Of a stretch of 61,942 bases of DNA, positions 8,888-16,007 are shown in pieces (position 1 is the stretch's first letter; each line of letters starts with the position of its first letter). The DNA comes from Candidatus Eiseniibacteriota bacterium (lineage in GTDB: Bacteria > Eisenbacteria > RBG-16-71-46 > SZUA-252), in contig JANMQV010000148.1 in assembly GCA_031370645.1 (NCBI GenBank), positions 1 to 61,942 of the forward strand. The letters are read 5' to 3'. Position numbers and translations under genes: made by a program. The notes beneath the pieces were generated by a model that saw nothing but the letters and a program-made list of their open reading frames with translations, was not told the origin of the DNA and made no database searches.

Positions 8888-11032
8888 CTAGACGCTAAGG
8901 GTGTCGGCCGGCGCAGCGGCTGGGCGCCGGCCGTACGTCCACGTGGCCCAGACCACAAACGCGACCACCGCGATGCTCTCCATGAGGTATCGCATGTCGT
9001 AGTAGTACGTCGAGAACTCGATGACCTGGGTAAAGGAAGCCAAGAGCAAGAGCGCGATCGGAATCTCTTCCCGCTTCTCCCACAGGAAGGCCGCCACGGT
9101 CAGGAACGAGAAGTAGTAGCAGGTCAGCTCCATGCTGATCGCGATCACTCCGAACCCGAACGCCGCCAAGACCCACCAGTCCATCTCGCGCCGCACCCCC
9201 CAGAAGAGAAGGGCCAGGTAGCCCACGACCAGAACCAGGAAGAGCGGCTGGCCGAAGATGCCGCGGAAGGCGCTCTTTCGCGCCTCGCGGAAATTGTGGA
9301 ACGGATCGGTCGAGCGCGGGTCGTACGACATCTTCTGCCGCGTCTCCCACCGGAATCCGACCATCGTTCGAAGCCCCATGTAGTTCGTGAGCGGCGAACC
9401 AGCGTGCTTCTTTGTGTTCTTCACGAACTCCGGCCAGGCCGACACACCTCCCGCCACCATGCTCGAGGCGGGGATGAGAATCGCCGTCGCAAGCGCCGCG
9501 CCGACCACGATGCTCATCCCCGTCCGGTCGAGACGCCGCTCGCGGAGGAAGATCCAGGCGAGCCGCATCCCGATCGCCACGAAGAATCCGACCGGGAAGA
9601 CGCGGAGGAGGGTCGAGAAGGCGAGGCACGCGCCGCCGAGCATCGGCTTCCCGCGCTTGAGGAAACAGATTCCCGCGACCGCTCCGAGGAACCAGTCCTG
9701 CCGGATGAAGCCGCCGCCGGTCCAGAAGTAGAGCGCCGGCTCGTTCGTCCCGAAAAAAAGCGCCGCCACGCACGCCACGCGCCATCCGAAGCCCCAGACG
9801 ATGAACGCGAACGCGATGCCCAGCAGAATCGGGTCGATCCACCCGAGGAAATCGAAGATGAGGGAATCCGACGCGGGCCCGAGATTCGAGAAGAACGATC
9901 CCGCCATGTTCCAGACAGGGGACGGATTGTAGCCGTGGTCCTGCAGCATCTTCTCCCACGACACGATTCCGGCCCGCTCGCGGAAGTAGGCGATGTCGTG
10001 CTTGAAGGCCTCCCAGCGCTCCGGCGTGAAGGGGCGACTGAAGCCGCGCTTGTAGCGCTCCGGATCTTCCAATACGTAGCGGGAAGGGATGATCTCATTC
10101 TTCCGCAGGTCACGGATCGTGCGGAGCTCCACCCGCCGGCGGAACCCCTGTTCCGCTTCCGCCAGGCTTGCGCACTCGTAGATGTGCGTGTAGCCGAGTT
10201 CGGGAAAATACTTCGCGCCGATGAAGTAATGGAAGAACTCGTGGTAGTGGATGCGGGTTGGGAAGTGATAGCCGCCCCAATTGTAGTAGCCGACGAAGCC
10301 GAGGAGCCCGAGTACCAGAAGCATCGCGTCTCGGAGGCGCTTGAGTTTTCCCGACTCCCCGCGCTGCTTGAGGGTCGAGCCCCACCAGAGGAGCGCTCCG
10401 CCGAGGAAGGCGAGGAGCGCTTTGAGGACATTCGCGTCGTGGCGCGTGAGCCCGGCCCACTCCCGCGGCCCCTTCGCAGGCGCCGGCGGCTTCGGCAATA
10501 CCGGGAGTGGTTCCGGCCACGCGGCAGGAATCTCGCAGAAGAGTTGAACCTCCGAGATCGTCCGCCCGCCGGGGCCGGTCGCTTCGCCGAACCGAACGAA
10601 TCGCCCACGCACCTCCGAGAGCAGCGTCGAGCGCGTCCGCTCCCCACGTCCATCGGTTTGGCCGACGTTCGGGACCGACCAGACTTCGTGATACGCGATG
10701 CCGTCGTCGGAGACTTGGAGCGAATAGGTGTTCCAGGCGTCGCCTTGAACCAGCGCGGCCGCGATCGGCATGTCGGCGCCGAGATCGAACGTGAGGGAGC
10801 CCGCCGCCGAGAGAAACTTGACGCCGCGAGCCGATCCCCAGGGGGCGCCTTCCTTGGAGCCCGCGTTGTCGAGCGCCAGCGAGACGAGACCGCCCGTGTC
10901 GAGAGAATCAACGAGTCGCGCCGCGGCGAGGAGGTTTCCCTGCGGGCAGGGAGCAGCGGCGGACTGCGGGAACCCGGGTGCGGCGAGAAGGAGCGCGAAG
11001 GTGGCCGCGAGAAGCGCTAGCCGGCTACGCAC
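8888..11032 (-). CDS. Multi-pass membrane protein with N-terminal discoidin/F5-8-like domain; putative GT-C glycosyltransferase
   Basis: Signal peptide, beta-sandwich segment (LTFDLG...YSLQVSDDG...RFVRF...ISEVQLF), then about 10 TM helices with loops HEFFHYFIGAKYFPELGY and DHGYNPSP. GTG 11032 overlaps the upstream stop. The GT-C call is inference. Confidence 0.7.
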   Translation of the reverse strand: MRSRLALLAATFALLLAAPGFPQSAAAPCPQGNLLAAARLVDSLDTGGLVSLALDNAGSKEGAPWGSARGVKFLSAAGSLTFDLGADMPIAAALVQGDAWNTYSLQVSDDGIAYHEVWSVPNVGQTDGRGERTRSTLLSEVRGRFVRFGEATGPGGRTISEVQLFCEIPAAWPEPLPVLPKPPAPAKGPREWAGLTRHDANVLKALLAFLGGALLWWGSTLKQRGESGKLKRLRDAMLLVLGLLGFVGYYNWGGYHFPTRIHYHEFFHYFIGAKYFPELGYTHIYECASLAEAEQGFRRRVELRTIRDLRKNEIIPSRYVLEDPERYKRGFSRPFTPERWEAFKHDIAYFRERAGIVSWEKMLQDHGYNPSPVWNMAGSFFSNLGPASDSLIFDFLGWIDPILLGIAFAFIVWGFGWRVACVAALFFGTNEPALYFWTGGGFIRQDWFLGAVAGICFLKRGKPMLGGACLAFSTLLRVFPVGFFVAIGMRLAWIFLRERRLDRTGMSIVVGAALATAILIPASSMVAGGVSAWPEFVKNTKKHAGSPLTNYMGLRTMVGFRWETRQKMSYDPRSTDPFHNFREARKSAFRGIFGQPLFLVLVVGYLALLFWGVRREMDWWVLAAFGFGVIAISMELTCYYFSFLTVAAFLWEKREEIPIALLLLASFTQVIEFSTYYYDMRYLMESIAVVAFVVWATWTYGRRPAAAPADTLSV

Positions 11033-11642
11033 CCGGCAGAATCCCGATCCAATCCCGCATGAGAAACTGCATGCGGGCGATGAGGAGCGAGACGCGCGCC
11101 ATGACCGTGTAGCCGAACGAGGCGCCGAACGCCACCATGAGGAACCAGATGCCAAGCCGAGCCGCGATGCCGTGGACCCCCTTGTGGGGAGCGGAGAAGA
11201 AGAAGTAGGCAAGCACGCTCAGAAATCCGAGCAGCACGAGCGCGGAACTCACGGCTCCCCACCCGGGCGCGAACGGCTTCAGCGCGTCGGCCACCTGGGC
11301 GAAGATCTGAGCCTGCAGATACGAGGGCACGGCGATCCCCGAATAGATCCCGACGTAGAAGGCGAGCGACCACCGCGCGATGCCCGACGTTCGCTCCCAG
11401 GCCCGTCCCAGAATGAGAATGCCCAGGACGAGCGGGATGATCGCCAGGAATTGCCCACGCTGGAGCTTTTCGATCACGTTCGGCCGAAGCACGTTCTGGT
11501 ACTGAACGGCGAGAAGGTAGCCGGCTGAAGCGCCGACGAAGAGATGCTCGGCGAATCGGTAGAGCGGATTGTCGCGATAGAGGAACGAGAAGACGCAGAG
11601 CGTCAGGATCGCCGCGATCCAGGTTCCGACGTCGTGGCTCAC
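11025..11642 (-). CDS. Uncharacterised membrane protein (module subunit B')
   Basis: 205 aa, ~6 TM; SFLYRDNPLYRFAEHLFVG and MVAFGASFGYTVMAR motifs; start overlaps the upstream stop (GTGA). Confidence 0.85.
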   Translation of the reverse strand: MSHDVGTWIAAILTLCVFSFLYRDNPLYRFAEHLFVGASAGYLLAVQYQNVLRPNVIEKLQRGQFLAIIPLVLGILILGRAWERTSGIARWSLAFYVGIYSGIAVPSYLQAQIFAQVADALKPFAPGWGAVSSALVLLGFLSVLAYFFFSAPHKGVHGIAARLGIWFLMVAFGASFGYTVMARVSLLIARMQFLMRDWIGILPGA

Positions 11643-12493
11643 GCGCCACCTCCGACCCGGCGTTTCAAACCGCCGGTGGCGAAGAGCGCGGCGTTCCCCA
11701 GCAACACGAGGATCACCACGATCAGGTGGACGAGGCTCTGCGCGTCCATGCCGCGGCGCCCATCCCCGACGATGCCCATGAGCCGCTCGTATTCCGCGGC
11801 GCCCTTCATGCCGCCGATTAGCCCCAGAATCTGCCCCGACGAGAGGTAAGGATAGTAGTCGGTGGCCATGACCGCGGTGGCGCCGAGGATCATCGGACGG
11901 TGGTAACGACTCGCCCCGATGCGGATGTAGTAGTCGGCGATCGTCGATCCCGAGAGATTGATGAGGAGCGGGAAGTCGGCGAAGGAGTTCGCCCGCTTCA
12001 TGAGCGAAATGGTGTCGGTGGCGGCGCCGTAGAAATCGCGCGGGAAGAGACCCTTGATGTTCTCCCCCAGACCGAGAACGACCGCCTGGTTTCCTGACTT
12101 GTACCCGAGAAATACGTAGTCGTCGTAGTTCCTCTTTCCTTCCGCCTCGGAAGCGATGGCAAGCGCCATCTCCACGAGGCGAGGCCCGGCGGGGTAGAGC
12201 GTCAGAATGATCGGCTTCAAGTGGCGGCGGAAGCAGTGCCGGAGAACCGCGATCGACATCGGCTGCAACTCCGCCATGATGTCGGGCTCATAGTCGAGCG
12301 ACATGAGGACGAGCGATCCCTCGGGCACCGCTTCGATGGCGTTGTAGGCGGCCTGCACGCGAGGCGACGGCGTCACCGGAAGATTGACGGGGAAAAGAAG
12401 CGGAAGGGCCGTGCCGACCCCGATCAGGACGAAGATCCAGCGGCGGTCGATCGCGAGGACGCGCCGCCAGAAGCCGTTCGGTTCCGCCGCCAC
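11639..12493 (-). CDS. Uncharacterised membrane-anchored protein (module subunit A')
   Basis: 284 aa; N- and C-terminal TM around an alpha/beta domain; DYVFLGY, YPYLSSGQILGLIGGMKGAAEYE, MDAQS. Confidence 0.85.
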   Translation of the reverse strand: MAAEPNGFWRRVLAIDRRWIFVLIGVGTALPLLFPVNLPVTPSPRVQAAYNAIEAVPEGSLVLMSLDYEPDIMAELQPMSIAVLRHCFRRHLKPIILTLYPAGPRLVEMALAIASEAEGKRNYDDYVFLGYKSGNQAVVLGLGENIKGLFPRDFYGAATDTISLMKRANSFADFPLLINLSGSTIADYYIRIGASRYHRPMILGATAVMATDYYPYLSSGQILGLIGGMKGAAEYERLMGIVGDGRRGMDAQSLVHLIVVILVLLGNAALFATGGLKRRVGGGA

Positions 12494-12496
12494 CGC

Positions 12497-13114
12497 CTAG
12501 GCCCTCCCCAGGTAGGAGCGGTCGATGCCGAGAATGATCTTGAGCGCGGTCGAGACAGCGCCGAGCCCGACTCCGATCGCCACCGCGCGTTTGGCGGCGA
12601 GGTTCGGCACGTCGAGGAGCCACTCGGTCAGAGGCGGAAATCCGCTCCAGACGAACTCGCCGATCGAGACGCGCCCAATCATCATGACGATGGCGGTGAC
12701 GAGGAGGAGGGTCGCTTCCACATTCCTCGCGCGGAAGGCGCGGAAGGCCGCGGATGCGATGAAGAAGGCGAGGAGCGAGAACATCGTCGAGGCGAGCGGC
12801 GCGTTGACCGAATCGTAGATCTGTCCGACGAGCGTCGTCCCGCTGACTCCCTGGACGACGCCGAGCGCCGTCACGCCGGTCAGGGCGACCAGGGTGACCG
12901 CGCTGTAGAACCATCCCTCCGCCCGCTGGAAGACTTTCTTCTGGTGCGACATCCAAAGCGCGATCGATCCGAGGATCAGCGCGAAGGTGTAGACCACGTC
13001 GGCCCACTCCAAGATGACCGACTGCGTCTCCTGGGCCGCGTGATGGGGGATGAAGAAGATGGCGATGAGGGTGGTGCCGGTGAGAAACGTGACGACGAGT
13101 GGTCCGAAGCGCAT
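12497..13114 (-). CDS. Uncharacterised membrane protein (module subunit B)
   Basis: 205 aa, ~6 TM; STMFSLLAFFIASAAFRAFRARNVEA and KIILGIDRSY motifs. Confidence 0.85.
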   Translation of the reverse strand: MRFGPLVVTFLTGTTLIAIFFIPHHAAQETQSVILEWADVVYTFALILGSIALWMSHQKKVFQRAEGWFYSAVTLVALTGVTALGVVQGVSGTTLVGQIYDSVNAPLASTMFSLLAFFIASAAFRAFRARNVEATLLLVTAIVMMIGRVSIGEFVWSGFPPLTEWLLDVPNLAAKRAVAIGVGLGAVSTALKIILGIDRSYLGRA

Positions 13115-13131
13115 GGTCCGCGTCTACCCTC

Positions 13132-13929
13132 TCACGATGTCTTGAGGAGCCGGCCGAGCCACGGGTGGCCGAGAGCCGAGAGGATGATCGCCAGAACGAT
13201 CATGCCGGCGGCGAGCGCCTTGGCCCAGTCCTGGGCGGCGATCGTCGCCAACTGGATCGGTTCCCGACCCAAATAGGCGCTGGCGGCGTAGAGCTCCTCC
13301 CCGAGGAGCGTGTAGTCGCACGAGCAGACGAAGAAGGGCAACTGCGTCACCTGATCGCATCCCGCGATCTGGATCGCGCCGGTCAGGTTTCCCGTCTCCG
13401 CGAGGAAGAGCGACTCGGCGTAGAAGGCGCCCATGTAGATGTTCGTGGCCGGCCGGTCGCGCATCATCGTTCCGGTCACGGAGGCGACGTAGGCGAACTG
13501 CGTGGCGCTCACGTAATAGACGCACCCGGGGCGAAACGCGTCGGCGCGATTCGCCTCGCGATACGCCTCGCGCGTGGTGCCGTCGATGAGGGCGGTGACG
13601 ACCGGGTCGTAGCAGGGGATGCGGAGATCGCATCCGAGTTCCGCCACGCGACGGGCGACCTTGCTCGAGATCGTGATCGCGGCCAGCGTTCCGACTTCGC
13701 TCATGTCGCCGATACCGGGGATGAAGAGGACGGGGCGGCCCATCTCGGTCGCGCGGCCGATCGCTTCGTCGAGCGCTTTGAGGCCGGCGATGGGTCGAAT
13801 GTAGAGTCCGTCCGGGGATCTGCGAGCGCGCCAGATGTTGATCGCGAGGAAGGTAATAAACAGAAGGAGTCCGACGAGCATGTTGAGACGGTTCGGGTCG
13901 AACCAGCGCGTGTCGAGCGTCTCACCCAT
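13132..13929 (-). CDS. DUF6754-like membrane-anchored protein (module subunit A)
   Basis: IRPIAGLKALDEAIGRATEMGRP, FYAESL, GAIQIAG, DYTLLGEELYAASAYL. The DUF6754 assignment is from recall of the family. Confidence 0.8.
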   Translation of the reverse strand: MGETLDTRWFDPNRLNMLVGLLLFITFLAINIWRARRSPDGLYIRPIAGLKALDEAIGRATEMGRPVLFIPGIGDMSEVGTLAAITISSKVARRVAELGCDLRIPCYDPVVTALIDGTTREAYREANRADAFRPGCVYYVSATQFAYVASVTGTMMRDRPATNIYMGAFYAESLFLAETGNLTGAIQIAGCDQVTQLPFFVCSCDYTLLGEELYAASAYLGREPIQLATIAAQDWAKALAAGMIVLAIILSALGHPWLGRLLKTS

Positions 13930-13962
13930 CACCGATACGCTAGCACGCGCTTGGGAGAAGGG

Positions 13963-15906
13963 TCAACGGCGGGCGGGCACCGGGGCGGTGGGCTGGTCTG
14001 AATCCTTCAAGAATTCCGCCAATTGTCGGGCCGCCGCCGGATCGAGCCGCTGGATGGCGGTCCGCTCCTTTGCCGCCCGCTCCTTGTCGCCCAGGCGAAG
14101 ATAGGCGAGGGCGAGGTTCATGCGGGCTTGAAGCGATGCCGGCGCCAACTCCACGGCCTTCTCGTAGGCGCGCCGCGCCTCCTCCAGCCGTCCCTGGCTC
14201 CCGTAGAGCGCGCCCAGGTTGTTCCAGGCGCCCACGTGCGTCGAATCGATGGCGAGCGCCTTCCGGTAGGCCACCGCCGCGCCCGCCGCATCGTCCGTCG
14301 CCGCGAGCGAGACGCCGTAGTTGTACCAGAGTGGCGCCTGCGTTCCGTCGAGTTCCACCGCCCGTCGAGAAGCGGCGATCGCCTCCGCCCGTTTTCCCTG
14401 CTGTGTCAGCGCGTCGCCGAGATTCGCCCACGCCTCCGCGTTCTTCGGGTCGAGAATGGTCGCGCGGCGGGCCGAATCCTCCGCGTCCGCCCAACGTCCC
14501 ATCATGCCCAGCACGAGCGCGCGCGTCGAGAACGCGCCCGTAAGCGTCGAATCGCGCTCGATCGCGTGGTCGAGTGCCGAGAGCGCGGCCGGAGCGTCTC
14601 CGAACGCGGCGTGTTGATCGGCCAGGCGAAGATAGGGCTCCGGATCGTGGGGCGCCGCCTCGGCCGATGCCTGAAGAAGTGCGACGTTATCCCTCCAGAC
14701 CGGAATCCGGCCGATCGTGGCGTAGGCCGCGAGCCCCGCGGCGACGAGCCCGAGTGCCACGGCGAGCGTGCGGGCTCCGCGCGGCGGCGCGGCGATCCAG
14801 GAGAGGAACGAGGCGACGAGGAGGCAGTATGCGACCAAGGGGAGATAGGCGAGCCGCTCTGCTACGTAGGGCCCGCCGAGGGGCGCGAAGGGGAGCGCCG
14901 GGACGAGTCCCACGGCGAGCGCGCGCACCCCGAATTGCGCGAGCGGGTCGCTTCGACGCCACCAGACGAACGCCGCGATGATGGCCACGAGCGGAACGAG
15001 CGGGACCCAAGGGATCGCCGATGCCGCGTCCGCCGAAAGCGAGCGGATCGCGTTCAACGGGTGCGGCCAGGCGAGGAGGGCGAGGTAATCGCCGAGCGCG
15101 TGAAAGATCGCCGCTCCCTCGCGCCCGACGGGGATGCCGCGTTCGACGAGCGGGAGGTGCGCGGTAGACGGCGCGAGGACGTGAAGCAGAAGAGCCCCGA
15201 TCCCGATGGCGAAGAAGCCCGCGTAGGCCGCTTTTCGCTCCGAGAGCGCGCTGCGCGGACTCCCGCTCCGATCGAGCGCGAAGAGGAGGAACGGCAGGAC
15301 GACCGCCGAGACATCGCTCGCGGCCGCCACGATCGCGAGCGCGAACGCGAGCCAGAGTTCCTTCGACCGAAGCCCGCCGCTCCGCGCTCCCGGGAGCCGG
15401 GCTGCGAGGAGCGCCGCCATGGAGAAGACGGCGGCCGTCATCGCCGCCCGCCCCGAGATGAAGGCGACCGACTCGACGTGGAGGGGGTGGGCGCCGAAGA
15501 GAAGTGATGCCGCGAACGCGATTCCGGCCGACGCGCCGAGGTGGATCGCCAGATGAAAGAAGAGCCAGGCTCCGGCGGCGTGGAGGAGGAGGTTCGTGAA
15601 ATGAAAGAGGGCCGGATTTCCCGCTCCGAGCGCCCACTCGCCGCGTTGGAGGAGATTCAGGAAGGGATGGAGTCCCCCTCCTCCGATTCCCGCCGCGCCC
15701 CGCGTAGTGGCCAGCAGGGCGTCATCCCAGACCCAGCCGAACTGGAGGGCGGGGAGGTAAAGGAGGCCCACCAAGAAGCCAGCGAGCACCGCGAGGAGAT
15801 TCGGGCTCAGGCGGGGAAACGCGAATCGAGAGCCGCCGCCCCGTTCTTCCTTCGCGGCGCGGCCTTTGCGAGGCGGTCCCTTGAGGGCTTCCTTCCGATT
15901 CGGCAC
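13963..15906 (-). CDS. TMTC-like membrane protein with C-terminal TPR repeats (putative protein O-mannosyltransferase)
   Basis: WVWDD in the first loop, HPLHVESVAFISGR, AERLAYLP, VWRDN, then several TPR repeats (AWANLG, AWNNLG). The ORF extends to 16005; GTG 15906 is preferred because 16005 collides with the SD of the divergent gene. Confidence 0.8.
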   Translation of the reverse strand: MPNRKEALKGPPRKGRAAKEERGGGSRFAFPRLSPNLLAVLAGFLVGLLYLPALQFGWVWDDALLATTRGAAGIGGGGLHPFLNLLQRGEWALGAGNPALFHFTNLLLHAAGAWLFFHLAIHLGASAGIAFAASLLFGAHPLHVESVAFISGRAAMTAAVFSMAALLAARLPGARSGGLRSKELWLAFALAIVAAASDVSAVVLPFLLFALDRSGSPRSALSERKAAYAGFFAIGIGALLLHVLAPSTAHLPLVERGIPVGREGAAIFHALGDYLALLAWPHPLNAIRSLSADAASAIPWVPLVPLVAIIAAFVWWRRSDPLAQFGVRALAVGLVPALPFAPLGGPYVAERLAYLPLVAYCLLVASFLSWIAAPPRGARTLAVALGLVAAGLAAYATIGRIPVWRDNVALLQASAEAAPHDPEPYLRLADQHAAFGDAPAALSALDHAIERDSTLTGAFSTRALVLGMMGRWADAEDSARRATILDPKNAEAWANLGDALTQQGKRAEAIAASRRAVELDGTQAPLWYNYGVSLAATDDAAGAAVAYRKALAIDSTHVGAWNNLGALYGSQGRLEEARRAYEKAVELAPASLQARMNLALAYLRLGDKERAAKERTAIQRLDPAAARQLAEFLKDSDQPTAPVPARR

Positions 15907-16007
15907 GGCGGTAGAGTGCCCGTCACCGAGTCGCGTTGCAAGGGGGTCGTTCGGAAGCGCCGTTCCGGCCCGCCCGGCGACCTCGCCTTCACGGATAGGA
16001 GGCACGC

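Follow-up and report, generated by a model that had tools for sequence, protein, structure and literature searches.

What could four tightly packed genes for small membrane proteins, three of which belong to no catalogued family, do for a bacterium that carries the whole set in three diverged copies? The question is raised by a segment of contig JANMQV010000148.1 (assembly GCA_031370645.1, Candidatus Eiseniibacteriota bacterium), whose 61,942 nucleotides are the stretch of DNA analysed here and are hereafter called the window. The genes in question, g1 to g4, make up a four-gene cassette that proves to be an unstudied and widespread set of inner-membrane proteins. Their role in transport is our guess: with clear reservations, we favour the reading that they form the core, within the membrane, of a modular machine for transport, and that several such cassettes share one cytoplasmic ATPase that serves them.

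Gene content and family membership

All four genes lie on the minus strand (coordinates from the open reading frame list): g1 (13132..13932; 266 aa from the GTG at 13932, or 265 aa from a conserved ATG at 13929), g2 (12497..13114; 205 aa), g3 (11639..12493; 284 aa) and g4 (11025..11642; 205 aa). In the sequence, 17 nt separate g1 from g2 and 3 nt separate g2 from g3, while g3 and g4 overlap by 4 nt. The co-directional, tightly packed arrangement described in the original prediction, which was made from this sequence alone, is thus exact to the nucleotide (gaps of 17, 3 and -4 nt). The same prediction had labelled the module 'DUF6754-like', and this is borne out for g1, a full-length member of the Pfam family DUF6754 (PF20539; E = 3.1e-100, 335 bits against a cut-off of 27, profile positions 3-252 of 257). 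The Pfam entry spans g1 only and assigns no function.

The remaining three proteins gave no Pfam or NCBIfam match above cut-off, and in the ESM Atlas g2 and g4 fell into unnamed clusters only. The sole transporter hint among g2-g4 was TMD0_ABC, at 16.9 bits below its cut-off of 27. No subunit passed the models of ABC, ECF or other transporter or ATPase families, and the cassette proteins matched no PADLOC defence model. The claim that the module lacks an ATPase or a known catalytic motif therefore stands for the cassette itself; it does not extend to the genome, in which an ATPase is linked to the cassette elsewhere (see below). Long relatives of g1 are annotated either as 'DUF6754 domain-containing protein' (by NCBI) or as 'hypothetical protein'. 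A literature search found no paper on DUF6754, on PF20539 or on PF13941 (the family of the linked ATPase), the papers listed by a search for a GlmL-like membrane gene cluster were unrelated to judge by title and abstract, and none of the papers found describes the four-gene unit, the orientation of its proteins or its connection with an ATPase.

Conservation and copy number

The genome that holds the window (247 contigs, 95% complete) encodes three DUF6754 proteins, and tblastn located all four cassette proteins, in the same order, at each of them: in the window and on contigs C157 and C32, where they share 36-50% identity with the window copy. By scanning one genome per species we registered at least 566 stretches that encode g1 relatives, and fetched 79 loci, which span Eisenbacteria, Zixibacteria, Ignavibacteria, Fermentibacteria, WOR-3, Cloacimonadota, Armatimonadota, Brocadiia and other groups. 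The full g1-g2-g3-g4 set was found in order in 72 of the 79 (of the remaining seven, three are truncated where the contig ends and four contain a lone g1), so that homologues do co-occur in other genomes, as had been anticipated. The genes are closely spaced throughout the fetched loci (median intra-cassette gaps of 15.5, 12 and 5.5 nt), and the window copy, having all four families in this order and at tight spacing, is a four-gene cassette by the same definition.

About 30 of the 79 loci carry two or three cassettes in tandem. The gaps between tandem cassettes are mostly 350-800 nt long (e.g., L029, L031, L033, L044, L051, L053, L055, L064, L070 and L080); they hold no conserved open reading frame and no Rfam family, and could be regulatory regions. 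When pairwise identities were compared between the four families over 77 matched cassettes, they proved to be correlated (r 0.79-0.88), which indicates that the cassettes evolve as units.

In a sample of 201 genomes from the window's phylum (121 of high quality; one of the 201, G015, is unpublished), DUF6754 was present in 183, including 111 of the high-quality ones, with one to nine matches each. Conservation is unevenly spread over the four proteins: the cytoplasmic domain of g1, in which the conserved residues are located at the ends of strands, reaches a mean pairwise identity of 0.635, and the other parts are lower (g2, 0.45; g3 domain, 0.40; g4, 0.46).

We reason that g1-g4 likely form one inner-membrane complex, given their strict synteny, tight coupling and correlated divergence and the natural g3-g4 fusions described below; the 'heterotetrameric membrane complex' first proposed is in this way well, if indirectly, supported. 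When the four chains were submitted to complex prediction with g4 as the partner, the scores were 0.79, 0.74 and 0.74. Two partner-replaced controls scored 0.00 and 0.00, but one in which g3 was replaced scored 0.75, and the run counts neither for nor against binding.

Solitary g1 genes with a signal peptide and an ectodomain were observed at L019:2096-4171, L042:6638-8264 and L054:6578-8262, as well as in L046 and L059. Those of L019 and L042 are followed by a protein of about 150 aa (and, in L019, then by a GNAT acetyltransferase), and a GNAT-like protein comes directly after that of L054.

Membrane orientation and ectodomains

The distribution of charges suggests that g1 and g3 face opposite sides of the membrane. 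In the family alignments, g1 has 4.0 lysine plus arginine residues in the 15 positions after its first transmembrane (TM) helix versus 1.4 in its N-terminal tail, while g3 has 3.5 and 3.9 in its two tails versus 1.5 and 2.4 on the domain side. Taken together with the signal-peptide ectodomains of g1 relatives, the bias would place the N-terminus of g1 outside and its Rossmann-like domain in the cytoplasm; together with the natural fusions, it would place both termini of g3 inside and its Rossmann-like domain on the extracytoplasmic face. Hydropathy and loop charges put the N-terminus of g2 inside, and that of g4 is probably outside, so that these two are probably in opposite orientations as well. 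The description of g2 and g4 as 205-aa proteins with about six TM helices fits g2, in which hydropathy shows six clear segments, better than g4, which has four strong and two weaker ones. The final TM helix of g3 carries an invariant His256 and an invariant Asn267.

The outer face is the variable one. In the other two g1 copies of the same genome, the N-terminal part consists of a signal peptide and some 110 aa of fibronectin-like sequence (without a Pfam match), and an N-terminal extension of at least 80 aa with a signal-like start is present in 101 of 118 uncut g1 genes; the window g1 and its 12 orthologues (L006-L017) are without it. Pfam fn3 was found in 4 of 120 listed long g1 relatives. 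Nearly all long g2 relatives (116 of 119) have their TM3-TM4 loop split by inserts of 150-450 aa, nine of them with FG-GAP/VCBS domains, and in one of the 119 (P0138, 501 aa, Zixibacteria) this loop of the g2 homologue holds a g3-like soluble domain. Among long g4 relatives, some start with a signal anchor and an ectodomain, others carry an insert between TM4 and TM5 (two with EF-hands), and 3 of the 120 listed are g3-g4 fusions; the only fusion sequence read, P0027, needs an extra TM helix between its g3 and g4 parts. The window copy has, by comparison, all four proteins in their minimal form, free of the added ectodomains.

Look-alike subunits of separate sequence

The original prediction interpreted the cassette as the product of an ancient A-B-A'-B' duplication, with g3 and g4 as counterparts of g1 and g2. 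We could not substantiate this at the level of sequence. BLASTP aligned g1 with g3 and g2 with g4 at E-values of 16 and 9.6. Profile comparison with hhalign gave probabilities of 1.3% (g1/g3) and 0.6% (g2/g4) for alignments of about 110 sequences, with cross-pair controls at 0.1-1.7%, and of 1.2% and 1.0%, respectively, for alignments of 49 sequences. The only aligned stretch of g1 and g3, the AQD/AQS start of the last helix, is not significant, and profiles of half-proteins revealed neither an internal 3+3 repeat in g2 or g4 nor a cross repeat between them (probability 0.3-1.8%). As an observation apart, a weak extra copy of g4 profile positions ~135-190 occurs in nine homologues (P0065, P0075, P0076, P0078, P0087, P0089, P0090, P0096 and P0102), which suggests that the TM5 region is partly repeated within g4 proteins of this type.

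What did hold was the common build proposed for g1 and g3 (a TM helix, a soluble alpha/beta domain and a final TM helix). Their AlphaFold2 models (pLDDT 90.2 for g1 and 92.7 for g3) display the same order of elements: a TM helix, a helix, six beta-alpha units and a long TM helix. Foldseek searches with these models returned weak Rossmann-type matches only, and structure searches against representatives produced flat match lists (Z 8-10) for both proteins. Seventeen entries are common to the two sets of top-50 matches, among them RCK/KTN domains, sirtuins and GT-B halves; 1kjn, for instance, matches g1 with Z 9.6 (root-mean-square deviation, rmsd, 3.5; 133 aligned residues) and g3 with Z 10.2 (rmsd 3.3; 137 aligned). 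Hence, to judge by the models, g1 and g3 are alike in build and belong to the same, very common class of folds, and the evidence stops short of common ancestry; the comparison of A with A' shows likeness in architecture and in Rossmann-like fold class, but no homology.

Two candidate relationships were set aside in the course of this work. A kinship of g1 with domain III (dIII) of transhydrogenase had been considered on the strength of motifs, and neither the PDB profile search nor the structure matches shown for g1 lent it support: neither g1 nor g3 had a PDB profile match to dIII, and the transhydrogenase entry 4j16_C, which matches g3 (Z 8.6, rmsd 3.7, 144 aligned) within the flat list, is not among the 50 structure matches shown for g1. 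A split GT-B enzyme, with g1 as the N-half and g3 as the C-half, came to mind from the GT-B halves in the match lists and was rejected because the two domains are predicted to lie on opposite sides of the membrane.

A linked GlmL/MutL-type ATPase

Clustering of neighbouring open reading frames brought out a pair of genes that encode a GlmL/MutL-type protein (PF13941, ~605 aa) followed by a soluble protein of ~375 aa without a family. In 13 loci from several phyla this pair is found immediately upstream of a cassette, and its two members are fused in L054. The window's own genome has a single PF13941 copy (C32:14513-15928; full-length match, E = 1.5e-129), which is situated directly upstream of the paralogous cassette on that contig. 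PF13941 belongs to the hydantoinase branch of the actin/Hsp70 fold, in keeping with its Pfam description.

Within the phylum sample, PF13941 was detected in 184 of the 201 genomes, mostly as a single copy, as against one to nine copies of the cassette. Both DUF6754 and PF13941 are present in 181 genomes and both are absent from 15 (10 of which are at least 90% complete), leaving few discordant cases: two genomes with DUF6754 only (G083 and G186) and three with PF13941 only (G114, G180 and G198). The pattern suggests, on sequence evidence, a functional link between cassette and ATPase, and it makes the epithet 'ATP-independent' that was originally attached to the module doubtful, since a PF13941 ATPase co-occurs with the cassette genome by genome and often adjoins one.

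The linked protein is set apart from the GlmL/MutL accessory proteins of glutamate mutase and ornithine degradation. Although it matches PF13941 over the full length, it is longer at the C-terminus by about 150 residues and has a 375-aa partner of its own, and its gene adjoins membrane cassettes rather than B12 mutase genes. It also fails the NCBIfam equivalog test for canonical GlmL, scoring below every cut-off (234.6 versus 475 for NF040745, 220.3 versus 600 for NF040744 and 170.1 versus 204 for TIGR01319). Just before the GlmL-like gene, a protein of ~130 aa without a family is encoded in L005 (5080-5484) and also in L023, L048, L068, L071 and L078; it is a candidate for an additional component of the cytoplasmic module.

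Promoter-like element and genomic surroundings

A promoter-like element precedes g1 on the minus strand (13937..13966) and consists of a -35-like TTGACC (13966-13961), an 18-nt spacer and TGCTAGCGT (13945-13937), the latter being a TGn followed by a -10-like TAGCGT. The -35-like hexamer overlaps the TGA stop of the upstream gene, and the ATG at 13929 begins 7 nt downstream of TGCTAGCGT. In the window and seven further loci (L006, L007, L008, L010, L012, L015 and L016), TTGAC, TA..GT and the G in the ATG region are invariant or almost invariant, and six of the eight sequences have an ATG 7 nt past TGCTAGCGT. The 'TGn-TAGCGT promoter' of the original prediction is consequently present and conserved as an element, but a scan for consensus sigma-70 promoters leaves it unflagged, because its -10 hexamer matches the consensus at only three of six positions. 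Position and conservation would fit a promoter that gives rise to a leaderless or near-leaderless mRNA. The sequencing runs listed as containing this stretch are DNA runs from three studies, with no RNA run among them.

Downstream, a minus-strand gene (8888..11032), which begins with a GTG and has its first 8 nt in common with the end of g4, encodes a 714-aa protein composed of a signal peptide, a discoidin-like (F5/8 type C) stretch (F5_F8_type_C, E = 2.2e-05, below cut-off) and a large polytopic part. In L006, L007, L011, L014 and L015, too, a protein of comparable size is encoded after the orthologous cassette, and the window gene is probably co-transcribed with its cassette. The upstream neighbour (13963..16005, minus strand), which ends 30 nt before g1, encodes a polytopic membrane protein with C-terminal TPR repeats, and a TPR-bearing polytopic gene is also found upstream in L006, L007, L008, L010 and L016. 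The membrane parts of the two flanking proteins match no Pfam family and no PDB entry; the idea that they are GT-C glycosyltransferases was dropped for want of Pfam or PDB support.

The surroundings of the other two copies differ. The C157 copy (L004, 66-8893) lies behind genes for an asparagine synthase, a GT2 and two GT1 glycosyltransferases, a GT4-family (WecA-like) transferase, a GAF/sigma-54 activator and a methyltransferase, in what looks like a polysaccharide-type cluster, and the C32 copy lies among glycine-cleavage and lipoate genes. The proteins downstream of the different cassette copies are unrelated to one another. In Zixibacteria and Ignavibacteria, a triple cassette is followed by a 115-aa protein without a family in 20 loci (e.g., L073:10819-11166) and by a pyruvate phosphate dikinase in 15 (e.g., L080:11231-14092), which may be no more than lineage synteny.

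Proposed function and alternative explanations

We explore the favoured reading, that of a transport machine with a shared ATPase, through the part that each protein might play. The products of g1-g4 would assemble into one complex of about 16 TM helices, which numerous bacteria, most of them uncultured, carry in anything from one to nine diverged copies. In it, g1 would anchor the highly conserved Rossmann-like domain on the cytoplasmic face and g3 the look-alike, sequence-unrelated domain on the outer face, with the polytopic g2 and g4 as the probable path through the membrane. An external substrate would be handled by the variable outer parts (the g3 domain, plus the g1, g2 and g4 ectodomains of other copies), while the cytoplasmic domain of g1 would be the docking or energising site for the single GlmL/MutL-type ATPase and its 375-aa partner, both of which are encoded in this genome on another contig, beside a paralogous cassette. 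The strong conservation of the g1 domain (0.635) fits a surface that must match one shared partner. The window copy would represent a minimal subtype, probably transcribed, together with the 714-aa gene, from its own promoter-like element. As to direction, the abundance of paralogues whose outer domains can be exchanged speaks for uptake, and the flanks in the own genome speak for export or envelope assembly.

Among known systems, group II ECF transporters and the ABC sugar importers that share MsiK likewise use one energising module for several membrane or substrate modules. By analogy, one cytoplasmic ATPase per genome would serve one to nine cassettes, and the part proposed to contact it is the most conserved while the outer parts are the most variable. 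The resemblance ends there: the cassette matches no ABC or ECF family, the linked ATPase would have an actin fold rather than an ABC fold, and docking to g1 is a proposal. Subunit pairs of opposite orientation are known from NqrD/NqrE, RnfA/RnfE and EmrE-type proteins, the members of which are recognisably homologous in sequence. The cassette proteins g1 and g3, and probably g2 and g4, may be comparable in being of like size and build and opposed in orientation; unlike those pairs, they have no detectable homology, and each member carries or partners a soluble domain of 200 aa. A bolder form of the favoured reading would see here a new class of primary-active transporter or translocase, with two opposed look-alike halves (g1 and g2 facing in, g3 and g4 facing out), driven by an actin-fold ATPase rather than one of ABC or P type, which up to nine modules with outer substrate domains of their own hold in common; we regard this as unlikely, though worth stating.

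Several observations weigh against a transport machine with a shared ATPase. None of g1-g4 matches a known transporter, pump or catalytic family (Pfam, NCBIfam, PDB profile searches and PADLOC), and the structure matches, being flat lists of generic Rossmann-like folds, say nothing on function. No ATPase gene lies beside the window cassette, and g1 genes without g2-g4 exist. The co-occurrence with PF13941 is suggestive and falls short of proof, because both families are near-universal in the phylum and the genomes are related and thus non-independent, so that the counts overstate the association; it rests, moreover, on one phylum, the groups reached in other lineages amounting to six and two genomes. 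Finally, two of the three copies in the own genome sit among envelope or glycan-type genes, a setting that fits export or envelope assembly as well as it fits uptake.

The last point leads to an alternative that we consider unlikely but deserving of attention, namely that the cassette acts on a lipid-linked or polymeric component of the envelope, which it would move or present (as a flippase, exporter or assembly platform) for the large membrane proteins encoded next to it. The window cassette stands between the TPR-bearing and the discoidin-like polytopic proteins, both of which recur in orthologous loci, the C157 copy follows GT2, GT1 and GT4-family genes, the cassette has a PMT_2 protein encoded after it in L048 and an L,D-transpeptidase in L060, and GT1 genes occur near cassettes in six loci. 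However, the membrane parts of the window flanks match no glycosyltransferase family or solved structure, the proteins downstream of different copies are unrelated, the flanks change with lineage (pyruvate phosphate dikinase, 2-hydroxyacid dehydrogenase, transketolase, NAD synthase), and the third copy of the same genome has glycine-cleavage and lipoate genes for neighbours. We find it improbable that the cassette is instead a self-contained, ATP-independent transporter, built of the inverted pseudo-halves g1+g2 and g3+g4 after a two-gene duplication. Such an origin would account for the common TM-Rossmann-like-TM build of g1 and g3 and their 17 common entries among the top 50 structure matches, for their opposite orientations (and probably those of g2, N-terminus in, and g4, N-terminus out), for the equal length of g2 and g4 with their similarly spaced TM segments (hydropathy) and for the lack of an ATPase gene beside the window copy. 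Yet neither whole proteins nor halves showed profile-profile homology (probability 0.3-1.8%), Rossmann-like folds are very common, and the presence or absence of the cassette closely tracks that of the GlmL-like ATPase.

The same outer domains and shared partner could also serve perception, with the variable outer domains sensing ligands and the g1 domain relaying the signal to the shared actin-fold protein, a notion to which we assign a small probability. The swappable outward-facing domains of many paralogues (fn3, FG-GAP/VCBS, EF-hand), the single conserved cytoplasmic partner, and the sigma-54 activator and PAS histidine kinase near some copies would all agree with it, but g1-g4 contain no known signalling domain, the regulators are not conserved neighbours, and a set of sixteen TM helices that have invariant polar residues within them is easier to reconcile with a conduit than with a sensor. 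Very improbable, to our mind, is an ion-translocating or redox coupling complex, although its layout would be similar: Rnf and Nqr combine two ~200-aa six-TM subunits of opposite orientation with a TM-anchored cytoplasmic nucleotide-type domain and a TM-anchored outer domain. The matches of both soluble domains to NAD-binding and RCK/KTN folds at Z 8-10, that of g3 to dIII (4j16_C, Z 8.6) and the near-universality of the cassette in the phylum would suit such a complex. Against this, there was no Rnf-Nqr match in Pfam (E up to 0.01) and no relevant PDB profile match, the invariant columns include neither conserved cysteine pairs nor flavin motifs, the structure match lists are flat, and one to nine copies per genome would be unusual for a respiratory complex.

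Implications

The cassette is present in about nine of ten genomes of the phylum and in many other, mostly uncultured, phyla, often in multiple copies, and a gene set so widespread and so often multiplied must do something basic. Look-alike subunits that face opposite sides of the membrane would in themselves be a clean test case for the evolution of membrane-protein orientation. Some relatives come from a named strain (e.g., Planctomicrobium sp. SH661), and if it is in culture, the function would be testable by genetics. Should the reading of a transporter or translocase be true, hundreds of 'hypothetical' genes per metagenome would be explained, and, if it is driven by an actin-fold ATPase, the cassette would represent a new class of membrane machine.

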